Source of the DNA: Candidatus Heimdallarchaeota archaeon
GTDB taxonomy: Archaea; Asgardarchaeota; Heimdallarchaeia; JABLTI01
Direction: 5' to 3'
Length of the DNA: 32,000 bases
NCBI GenBank assembly: GCA_030614005.1
Contig: JAUWKS010000005.1
Location: 1 to 32,000 of the forward strand
Of the stretch, positions 19,880-21,389 are shown in pieces (positions within the stretch are counted from its first letter, which is position 1; every line of letters starts with the position of its first letter). The notes beneath the pieces are model-generated. The model was not told where the DNA came from and ran no database searches. It saw nothing but the letters and a program-made list of their open reading frames with translations. A program made the position numbers and the translations under genes.

Positions 19880-20629
19880 TTAAACAAGATTTACCGTAAT
19901 TTCTATTGTATCTAGCCTTTCATCGAACTTTACGATGCTTTTGCTATCTAAATTTCTGAGTGCTTTTAGGATAATAACAGGAGGTGTTTTTGAAACTGAT
20001 TTCTTTAGCTCATCTAAGCCGATTGCTTGTTTGCGGTATGCGAGCGTTGAAAGTATATCTACTTCTGGTATGTCGATACGAACTTCCTTCAAGAGGAAAT
20101 CCAATATGGGACTTACTTGAACATTTTGTTCTTCTTCTCTTAGTATTTCATCTAATTGCTCTTGTGCTTTCACAATTTGTTTATTCATACGTGTTTGAGT
20201 AATCTCTTTTTCCGAAGTTTTAGCTTTAATATTCTCTTTTAGTAGAACTATTTGACTTTCTGTTGAGGAAAGCTCGTTCTTTAGCTCATTATGATTCTTA
20301 TCAAGTTGTTCCATTTCTAGTGTCAATTTATTACTCTTTTCTTGTTCATCGGTTATACTCAATTTCGTACGTTCAGTTTGTTCTTTAAATGAGTTAATAT
20401 CACTGAGTAAATCCTTCTTCTCATTTTGAAGTTGTATTTCATCTCGCTTACGATTATTAAGATTATTTTCTAAATTATGGGCATTTTGTTCTGCCTTTTC
20501 TAAATATGAGAGAGCTTCATTGATTTCAAGAAGTGTTGCTTCAATCTTTTGATGAATGATTTGATCTAATTTTTCTAAGCGTTCCTTTTCAGTTAAAATG
20601 CTTCTTTTTAAGCTAACTAAGTCTGTCAT
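19880..20629 (-). CDS. Long coiled-coil protein with C-terminal winged helix (paralogue B, 249 aa)
   Basis: About 170 aa of charged heptad sequence, then PEVDILSTLAYRKQAIGLDELKKSV...IILKALRNLDSKSIVKFD (wHTH pattern). SD AGGAGG. Confidence 0.75.
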   Translation of the reverse strand: MTDLVSLKRSILTEKERLEKLDQIIHQKIEATLLEINEALSYLEKAEQNAHNLENNLNNRKRDEIQLQNEKKDLLSDINSFKEQTERTKLSITDEQEKSNKLTLEMEQLDKNHNELKNELSSTESQIVLLKENIKAKTSEKEITQTRMNKQIVKAQEQLDEILREEEQNVQVSPILDFLLKEVRIDIPEVDILSTLAYRKQAIGLDELKKSVSKTPPVIILKALRNLDSKSIVKFDERLDTIEITVNLV

Positions 20630-20642
20630 CCGGTATTTCCTC

Positions 20643-21389
20643 CTATAATTTTAGACTCCTTGTAATGATAATTGCACCTGTAGAAGAATCATAGGTAATA
20701 AGATTCCTTTTCATCAAACCTTCTAATGTTTTTATTATTAATGCATCTGAAATTCCAGTAATTTTTGAAATGGTGCTTAAATCAGTATTCTTTCGACCCT
20801 CTAGTGCATTTATTATCTTTAATTCATTAAATTCAACATGATTTTTCTTGATTAGATATTCAAGAGCCATTCTTTCCCCTTTTATTCTACTAATGGAATC
20901 TTTTTTCGCTTCAACTTTCTTTTCAAGTTCTAGAATTTTTATTTCACTAGAGCTAACAATTGATACAATTTCATTAGATATTTTTTTATTCTCTTCTGAA
21001 AAGTTGGAAAACTCATCTTTAGCTCCTGCAAGCTTATTTTTCGTTTCACCTAGTTCAGTATTGATCTCTCTGAGTCGTGTTTCTAATTTAGCTCTATTAT
21101 TAACTAGTTCCGATAAATTTGATTGCGTCTCTGATAATAGAGTTTCATTTGAATTCTTTTCTCCCTTCAGGGTTGAAACCTCTCGAGTAAGAGCATCATT
21201 ACTTGATTCATAAGCAGAAATTTCTTCTTTACGTTTCTTTTCAAAAATAATTTGTTCCTCGATAGGATTTTTCAAATCTTCTAATCCTTTCTGAGTCACT
21301 ATTATTTTATTATCAAATTCATCTTTTAATTCTTGAATTGTGAGATCTGATTTTTTAATTGATGTTTGTACTTCGGATATATCTGTCAT
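20643..21389 (-). CDS. Long coiled-coil protein with C-terminal winged helix (paralogue A, 248 aa)
   Basis: Start moved to ATG 21389 (MTDISEV; SD GGAG upstream). Coiled coil followed by NELKIINALEGRKNTDLSTISKITGISDALIIKTLEGLMKRNLITYD (wHTH). Ends 13 nt before paralogue B. Confidence 0.75.
   Translation of the reverse strand: MTDISEVQTSIKKSDLTIQELKDEFDNKIIVTQKGLEDLKNPIEEQIIFEKKRKEEISAYESSNDALTREVSTLKGEKNSNETLLSETQSNLSELVNNRAKLETRLREINTELGETKNKLAGAKDEFSNFSEENKKISNEIVSIVSSSEIKILELEKKVEAKKDSISRIKGERMALEYLIKKNHVEFNELKIINALEGRKNTDLSTISKITGISDALIIKTLEGLMKRNLITYDSSTGAIIITRSLKL

Follow-up and report, generated by a model that had tools for sequence, protein, structure and literature searches.

The B-A gene pair and its gene models

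Two adjacent genes are described here from a stretch of 32,000 nucleotides (nt) of Candidatus Heimdallarchaeota archaeon DNA, which comprises positions 1 to 32,000 of contig JAUWKS010000005.1 (assembly GCA_030614005.1) and is called the window in what follows. Both genes lie on the minus strand, and each of them encodes a protein made of a long N-terminal coiled coil (the rod) followed by a C-terminal winged helix (wH) domain (the head). The upstream gene is named B (P0002) and the downstream gene A (P0001); genome families are numbered f1 to f31, f1 being the Heimdall family of the window, and fetched loci are given as L plus a number. Judging from the sequences, the two products are a real and undescribed pair of proteins found in much of the Asgard phylum, which probably assemble into a heterodimeric rod. 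The features of the pair are as follows:

20643..21389, minus strand: gene B (P0002), 248 amino acids (aa) plus stop, starting with MTDI at ATG 21389
20880..21389, minus strand: B rod, a heptad coiled coil over residues 1 to about 170
20646..20879, minus strand: B head, residues 171-248, junction motif GERMALEYLIK and then the winged helix
20630..20645, minus strand: B stop codon and 13-nt spacer, with a GGAGG motif similar to a Shine-Dalgarno sequence that overlaps the B stop
19880..20629, minus strand: gene A (P0001), 249 aa plus stop, starting with MTDL
20123..20629, minus strand: A rod, residues 1-169, predicted single unbroken helix of about 25 nm
19883..20122, minus strand: A hinge and head, residues 170-249, with a break at S-P174, the motif ILDFLLKEVRIDIPEV and then the winged helix

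The longest open reading frame (ORF) of gene B begins further upstream, at GTG 21407. Since nearly all of the 71 B homologues are exactly 248 aa long and start at the Met of MTD, the start of B has been assigned to ATG 21389 instead of GTG 21407. Almost all of the 64 A homologues have 249 aa, and the identity among the A and B orthologues that keep these lengths ranges from 47 to 86%. An initial annotation of the window had proposed, after correction of the start, two genes beginning with MTD[I/L], with products of 248 and 249 aa and 13 nt apart, and both the ORFs and the homologues confirm it. Variable lengths among orthologues had been named there as a sign against a joint structure; they were not seen, the lengths of the window being those of almost all B and A sequences.

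The GGAGG motif over the B stop codon suggests that A and B are translationally coupled. The pair is separated by 177 and 179 nt from its neighbours (an upstream gene of 437 aa and a downstream Arf-family GTPase gene, respectively), compared with 13 nt within the pair, and because of these flanking gaps it resembles a small operon of its own. No site for the strict archaeal TATA pattern TTTAWATA was found near the A and B genes.

Paralogy and fold of A and B

The pairwise BLASTP comparison between A and B is not significant (E 0.42). When the two families are compared profile against profile, a match with 96% probability (E 2.7e-9) is obtained, which is collinear over 228 columns. By this comparison A and B appear as distant paralogues, in agreement with the tandem paralogy initially annotated.

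The AlphaFold2 model of A (mean predicted local distance difference test score, pLDDT, of 84) consists of a single helix from residue 2 to 169, the break at S-P174, a short helix and the wH, whose topology is helix-strand-helix-helix-hairpin. The pLDDT values of the rod are 85-96 over residues 11-160, and 73 and 72 in the end blocks. In the case of B, the last 89 residues were predicted as a long helix leading into a canonical wH (helix, strand, two helices and hairpin; pLDDT 87). The heptad pattern is clear in both rods: the hydrophobic Fourier peak at 3.5 residues has an intensity of about 24 in each of them, and the mean hydrophobic occupancy is 0.67-0.69 at the a/d positions versus 0.16-0.17 at the other positions. 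A helix of 168 residues, at 0.148 nm per residue, gives a rod of about 25 nm. The heptads and the models therefore agree with the coiled coil of about 170 aa, the C-terminal wH and the length of about 25 nm that had been deduced from the window. The B rod contains an invariant Pro42 and an invariant Asn64 at an 'a' position. Besides, conserved charged residues occupy core positions in both rods (E50, K78 and R99 in B; R60, K71, E95, K137, K141 and K166 in A).

Searches for known relatives did not point to any family. Fold searches with the heads gave cullin WHB, Z-alpha, IclR, MarR, Rpa2 and Hop2 wH domains, all of them tied at Z 7-9, and the structural matches of the B head are generic wH domains (Z 7-8.3). 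Foldseek against PDB and the VIA and atlas fold searches returned only generic wH domains and long helices, none of them standing out, and the PDB sequence search with the A and B profiles gave only generic coiled coils. Neither A nor B has a significant match in Pfam, P0002 reaching 13.1 bits with TrmB (cut-off 25.6) and P0001 having no match to wH families. In wider Pfam scans, 10 of 28 A-like members match MarR (best 8.4e-6) and 9 of 24 B-like members match MarR_2, and several relatives match MarR, MarR_2 or TrmB at 1e-4 to 1e-6. The initial annotation had recognised no named family, and the Pfam and fold searches lead to the same result.

Distribution, pairing and phylogeny

All the named homologues are Asgard archaea (Heimdallarchaeota, Heimdallarchaeaceae, Hodarchaeales and Promethearchaeota), a few labels being evidently mis-binned. 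The phylum-wide profile search (E <= 1e-5) detected matches in 358 of 399 Asgard genomes and in 86 of the 90 high-quality ones, counts that include unpaired relatives and some coiled-coil noise. From 47 distant loci that were fetched, 36 were typed, together with the window, for A and B neighbours. Tandem pairs in which B precedes A were found 35 times in 36 typed loci, always in this order, and the gap between the two genes has a median of 0 nt (range -11 to +29). These pairs are present in at least 14 families (f1-f7, f9, f11, f12, f19, f20, f26 and f27), of which f19 and f20 are presumed Loki-type genomes, whereas f27 is small and possibly Odin-type. In the maximum-likelihood tree, the B clade (33 rows, support of 92 in the Shimodaira-Hasegawa-like approximate likelihood ratio test) and the A clade (37 rows, support of 94) contain the same lineages, hence the duplication that gave rise to A and B is older than the split of the Asgard classes.

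Two B-A pairs per genome were found in f12 (L035 and L040), where they form a contiguous B-A-B-A array, and in f9 (L056 and L057), where they occupy two distant sites of one closed genome. In the tree, the extra pairs were duplicated as whole units. At L042:6544-6996 (f6, a single-contig genome), B was called at only 150 aa beside a full-length A; its start may have been called wrongly, or the gene may be frameshifted or truncated.

Apart from the pairs, there are single relatives without a partner in f10, f13, f14, f28 and f31, the last one being probably Thor-type, a call that rests on an Atlas cluster labelled Thorarchaeota. These proteins are true homologues: they match both profiles at E 1e-13 to 1e-22 and have the architecture and the junction and head motifs in common with the pair. 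Nevertheless, they are encoded by single genes, their lengths vary from 206 to 248 aa, and they constitute a third group in the tree. The initial annotation had considered that A and B should not occur independently. The ordered pair of the typed loci agrees with this expectation. The unpaired relatives (L077-L081, L052 and L062) have in common the motif LL.IY..LLE.VF.G.PHA.IL..LH ... QPAV.LK.I.DL, which is strongly conserved in their tails. In the Atlas, a Bathyarchaeota-labelled cluster reaches 0.94 with one unpaired relative and 0.78 with A, and it is taken as a lead only.

The profile search against 1.84 billion representatives, a library that carries no taxonomy, gave 150 listed matches. 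The single-stretch, full-length ones among them all have 237-254 aa; giant coiled-coil proteins dominate the matches listed, and no relative outside 237-254 aa was recognisable among them. The ESM Atlas feature search returned only unnamed Asgard clusters, one of them automatically named 'V-SNARE ... fragment' (0.86), which is likewise only a lead. The literature search on Asgard coiled-coil and wH proteins and on Asgard Arf papers yielded no account of the family or of Arf gene neighbourhoods.

Rod length and probable pairing of the chains

Counted from the start, the invariant Leu of the junction is reached after 178 residues in both A and B of the window, and elsewhere mostly after 177-181 residues in both partners, at 16-23% identity. 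The rod lengths of the two partners co-vary (180/180 in f3, 177/177 in f6 and 179/178 in f19/f20). Thus the conserved length despite strong divergence, which had been noticed in the window, holds mostly within these five residues at about 20% identity. Register shifts are located at equal residue numbers in A and B, both in f1 and again in the Loki-type genomes.

In search of signals that paralogy by itself would not create, the charges flanking the core were analysed by means of the family-averaged g-e' charge product, where negative values are favourable, and this gave the strongest signal. Parallel A-B at offset 0 has a product of -0.19 (f1) and -0.22 (Loki-type genomes), versus -0.06 to +0.14 at all other parallel A-B offsets, and -0.07 and -0.12 in the best antiparallel A-B registers. 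Parallel homodimers give -0.06 and -0.10 for A-A and +0.01 and -0.04 for B-B in these two groups. When heptads are permuted, a fraction of 0.0006 of the trials in f1 (13 heptads) and 0.0019 in the Loki-type genomes (8 heptads) reaches the observed A-B product. The in-register parallel coiled coil of the initial annotation is backed by this complementarity, which among parallel A-B registers appears at offset 0 only, in f1 and in the Loki-type genomes.

Related to the core, 19 of 47 a/d layers are mixed: one chain contributes a conserved residue that is polar or charged, and its partner a hydrophobic one. Like charges would meet at those layers if the homodimers were in register. The number of such layers equals the expectation under independence of the two chains, without statistical complementarity. 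The e/g charges of B are self-complementary in antiparallel orientation at full overlap (20880-21389 in the window; Loki-type loci L043-L048 and L063-L067); a second form of the protein, B2, or rods packing together might lie behind this.

Prediction of the A-B complex gave an interface score (interaction prediction score from aligned errors, ipSAE) of 0.52 in three runs, compared with 0.00 for the best of three controls; the runs agree in at least 95% of the contacts and the pLDDT of the partners is at least 84. A-B passes the mark of the tool, as do 58 of the 80 solved complexes and 2 of the 110 mismatched pairs. Values of 0.60 or under include 7 of the 80 solved complexes and both passing mismatches, and by the grading of the tool the prediction lends weak support to the pairing.

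Heads, tips and surface charge

Over its last 75 residues, A is acidic or neutral in 28 of 28 sequences (net charge -8 to 0; 0 in the window), whereas the same stretch of B is in most cases mildly basic (-2 to +6; +3 in the window, and up to +6 in f12 and f26). This contrast between an acidic A tail and a basic B tail is found in the five lineage groups out of five. The wing of A (DERLDTIEI) is acidic. The third helix of the A head opens with an invariant Pro-Pro, after which hydrophobic residues come; at the equivalent positions B varies from lineage to lineage. The rod is acidic throughout, and the net charge of the dimer would be about -17. The charge profile of the rod has no dipole, and the Fourier analysis of charge revealed no long period: no peak exceeds an intensity of 7, and around 39, 28 and 19.7 residues there is none.

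The heads are by far the better conserved parts, with a mean column identity of 0.84-0.89 versus 0.64-0.72 for the rods. Many nearly invariant rod columns are located within the first 20 residues or so, and conservation is higher at the two rod ends than in between. As conservation concentrates in the heads and in the N-terminal tip, binding sites are expected at both ends of the rod. With regard to their nature, two heads packing on each other and binding protein would fit these features better than a DNA binder that reads sequence, and the acidic A head and the acidic rod argue against a classic DNA binder.

Comparison with known systems

The closest analogue is Hop2-Mnd1. It is composed of two paralogous chains of about 200-250 aa that form a parallel coiled-coil rod with twin wH domains at one end, the opposite end being free for a second partner, an arrangement much like the one proposed here for A and B. 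Besides, in the fold search with the A head the Hop2 wH shares the top positions with other domains (2mh2; Z 8.9, root-mean-square deviation 1.4, 59 residues). However, the wH is N-terminal in Hop2-Mnd1 and C-terminal in A and B, the rod consists there of three kinked zippers and here of one unbroken helix of 168 residues, and the A head is acidic. Neither P0001 nor P0002 matches TBPIP (PF07106) or Mnd1 (PF03962) at E <= 1, the two families are absent from those matched by the 52 members scanned, and the Mnd1 wH appears in the PDB profile search at E 0.7 only, over 35 residues, with no sign of common descent. Because of the position of the wH, the different form of the coil and the lack of a detectable sequence relation, the pair is placed outside the Hop2-Mnd1 family.

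Archaeal regulators of the MarR/TrmB type, including Sso10a, share the wH topology with A and B, and some members of the family are similar to them in sequence, from sub-threshold levels up to 1e-6. These regulators are short homodimeric DNA binders in which the wH is located before or inside the dimerisation helices, whereas the pair has a rod of 168 residues before the wH, is a putative heterodimer of paralogues and carries one acidic Pro-Pro head. Spc24-Spc25 and similar heterodimers resemble the proposed rod in their N-terminal parallel heterodimeric coil, followed by a small alpha/beta head in each paralogue, and in the sizes of the chains; their heads, however, have the RWD fold and not the wH, and the match to Spc25 is not significant (E 0.19).

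Other candidates were discarded. ESCRT-III/CdvB has no support from Pfam (no Snf7 match), and the A model is one straight helix from residue 2 to 169 with no hairpin. ESCRT-II (Vps22/Vps36/Vps25) was rejected because each chain of the pair has a single wH, not a tandem, and EAP30 is not matched. Consequently, the wH-mediated assembly recalling ESCRT-II and the C-terminus of CdvB, put forward in the initial annotation, is not sustained by Pfam. A tropomyosin-like coil lacks backing in a surface-charge periodicity of about 39 residues, which is absent. Finally, a GRIP/GRAB golgin does not agree with a C-terminal domain that is a wH, nor with a GTPase adjacency restricted to f1 and one f5 genus.

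Proposed role of the pair and alternative explanations

It is probable, with considerable room for doubt, that A and B form an obligate heterodimeric, parallel and in-register rod of about 25 nm with a twin wH head, acting as a spacer or adaptor. According to this proposal, the two ancient paralogues would be produced from one translationally coupled operon of two genes, and their helices of about 168 residues would pair in parallel and in register to give a two-stranded rod of about 25 nm. The C-terminal end would carry a composite head (the acidic wH of A and the mildly basic wH of B) and the N-terminal end a conserved tip. The rod could then serve as a spacer or adaptor of fixed length that sets the distance between partners bound to the head and to the tip, and these partners would more likely be proteins than DNA. 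What the data show directly is the pairing of the genes, their paralogy, the folds, the constant length and the complementary charges; that the chains really heterodimerise, serve as a ruler or adaptor and bind proteins instead of nucleic acids is inferred. The tether, filament subunit and DNA-bridging factor that the initial annotation had offered as roles are guesses.

Such a constraint on rod length is typical of molecular rulers and of rods that form lattices, such as tropomyosin, the arms of SMC proteins and intermediate filaments. In a conserved two-headed rod of 25 nm one may therefore see the sign of a structural or organising machine that has gone unrecognised. The pair was duplicated before the Asgard classes split, is still coupled and keeps its rod length at about 20% identity, yet it has remained unnamed. 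The sequence evidence for a parallel in-register heterodimer allows an exact design of constructs, and the cultured Asgard strains bring localisation and pull-down work within reach.

Several results weigh against the heterodimeric spacer rod. The segments that entered the heptad permutations were picked after the register had been seen. In f6 the parallel A-A product (-0.21) is as good as that of A-B (-0.15), and the products of the small f3 and mixed groups give no clear preference. Moreover, B-B in antiparallel orientation at full overlap scores -0.23 in f1 and -0.19 in the Loki-type genomes, in the same register. The hydrophobic cross-correlation is similar at offsets 0 and ±7 and in antiparallel orientation, so that neither offset nor orientation is separated by it. 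The pass of the A-B complex prediction is a weak one. Finally, the wH domains are related in sequence to the DNA-binding MarR/TrmB families, which leaves room for binding of nucleic acids.

This last point leads to the alternative that survives best, which we regard as unlikely: a rod that binds DNA or chromatin in the manner of Hop2-Mnd1 or RacA, with the heads on nucleic acid and the rod or the tip recruiting a recombinase, a segregation factor or an anchoring partner. It is favoured by the MarR/TrmB-type heads and by the match of the A head to the Hop2 wH and to the archaeal Rpa2 wH (Z 9.1), both tied with many other wH domains. The mildly basic B heads are consistent with it too, and unspecific binding of nucleic acid by B is possible. 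A core gene pair of the phylum would also suit a housekeeping DNA task. The acidic or neutral A head of all lineages and the acidic rod stand against this idea, as does the third helix of A, where Pro-Pro and hydrophobic residues take the place of the polar or basic residues of DNA readers, while the equivalent residues of B vary between lineages. No conserved neighbour related to DNA metabolism was found at the sampled loci.

It is improbable that the pair is an effector or tether of small GTPases, comparable to a GRIP golgin with Arl1, in which the head or the tip would bind the GTP form of the neighbouring Arf at a membrane under the control of a DENN-like regulator. The gene downstream of A does encode an Arf-family GTPase (Pfam Arf 1.9e-52), and f1 keeps the order DENN-like, B, A, Arf and a 100-aa gene at about 50% identity; in this family the whole region is syntenic, unrelated operons included. 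In addition, a Ras/Rab-type GTPase (Pfam Ras 1.6e-40) is located directly downstream of the pair at L059:6297-6863, in genus g15 of f5, and a related small GTPase is found in the Loki-type locus L067 about 5 kb from the pair, on the opposite strand. However, no GTPase adjoins the pair in the other sampled families or in other f5 genera, and no homologue of the Arf, DENN-like or 100-aa genes was detected within about 6 kb in the first 20 distant loci screened outside f1. Ras-superfamily genes number at least 40 in this genome, and the window contains three (19179-19658, 29198-29683 and 30967-31461). With such a number we estimate about 0.7 chance adjacencies over some 30 lineages, so the two that were seen are compatible with chance. 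The gaps that separate the pair from its neighbours, much longer than that within it, do not favour the link either. A survey of 214 Asgard genomes found Arfs widely present in Gerd-, Heimdall- and Hodarchaeales (PMC11914678), whereas the pair also occurs in f19/f20 and f27. The tie to the adjacent wH-bearing genes drawn in the initial annotation, like that to the Arf gene, is not kept outside f1 and lacks support.

It is similarly improbable that the A-B heterodimers are subunits of filaments or lattices, like those of keratin types I and II, and polymerise head to tail or side by side. The fixed length of the rod, its more conserved ends and the obligate pairing of paralogues would be expected of such a subunit, the antiparallel charge match of B-B recurs in two lineages, and Pfam gives sub-threshold matches to crescentin and intermediate filaments. 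The latter are generic coiled-coil noise (Rod_CreS 17.9 bits versus a cut-off of 100), and the uniformly acidic rod lacks both a dipole and any long-range charge periodicity.

The least probable alternative, that A and B form separate parallel or antiparallel homodimers and that their adjacency reflects only tandem duplication and co-regulation, can appeal to the unpaired relatives, which presumably homodimerise, and to the favourable A-A (f6) and B-B (f1 and Loki-type) products, but it is opposed by the strict order and coupling kept since before the class split, by the co-varying rod lengths, by the charged core residues of each chain, which would clash in an in-register homodimer, and by an A-B complementarity at offset 0 that A-A and B-B lack in f1 and the Loki-type genomes.

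Returning to the spacer or adaptor rod, its widest interpretation is highly speculative and, in our estimate, very unlikely to hold in full. It would be a core Asgard ruler that links two structures (for instance cytoskeleton, membrane or chromosome), unknown in other prokaryotes, and it may be a forerunner of eukaryotic heterodimers made of a coil plus a head, such as Hop2-Mnd1 (through domain rearrangement) or rods of the kinetochore type.

Other genes near the pair

Clustering of the neighbours over about 45 loci revealed no gene family that accompanies the pair across classes; the genes seen include those for radical SAM proteins, a RIO-like kinase, the Pst transporter, a DNA methylase, PfkB, GDH, VTC, NFACT and subtilases. 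The window also contains, some 3 kb away from A and B, a RadA/Rad51-family paralogue (16016-16972) whose position shows synteny in f1. It is worth mentioning only through the analogy with Hop2-Mnd1, and no homologue of it was found near the pair in the other lineages sampled.

In four genera of the Loki-type genomes (L043, L044, L046, L047 and L066), a gene on the same strand, immediately upstream of the pair, encodes a protein of 278-280 aa with a weak RIO-kinase match (E 5.8e-6); this gene is absent from the other Loki-type genera sampled. At L059, an NFACT protein is encoded upstream of the pair and a 1431-aa protein with a subtilase domain after the GTPase. Other f5 genera, as well as f4, have related large subtilases beside the pair.

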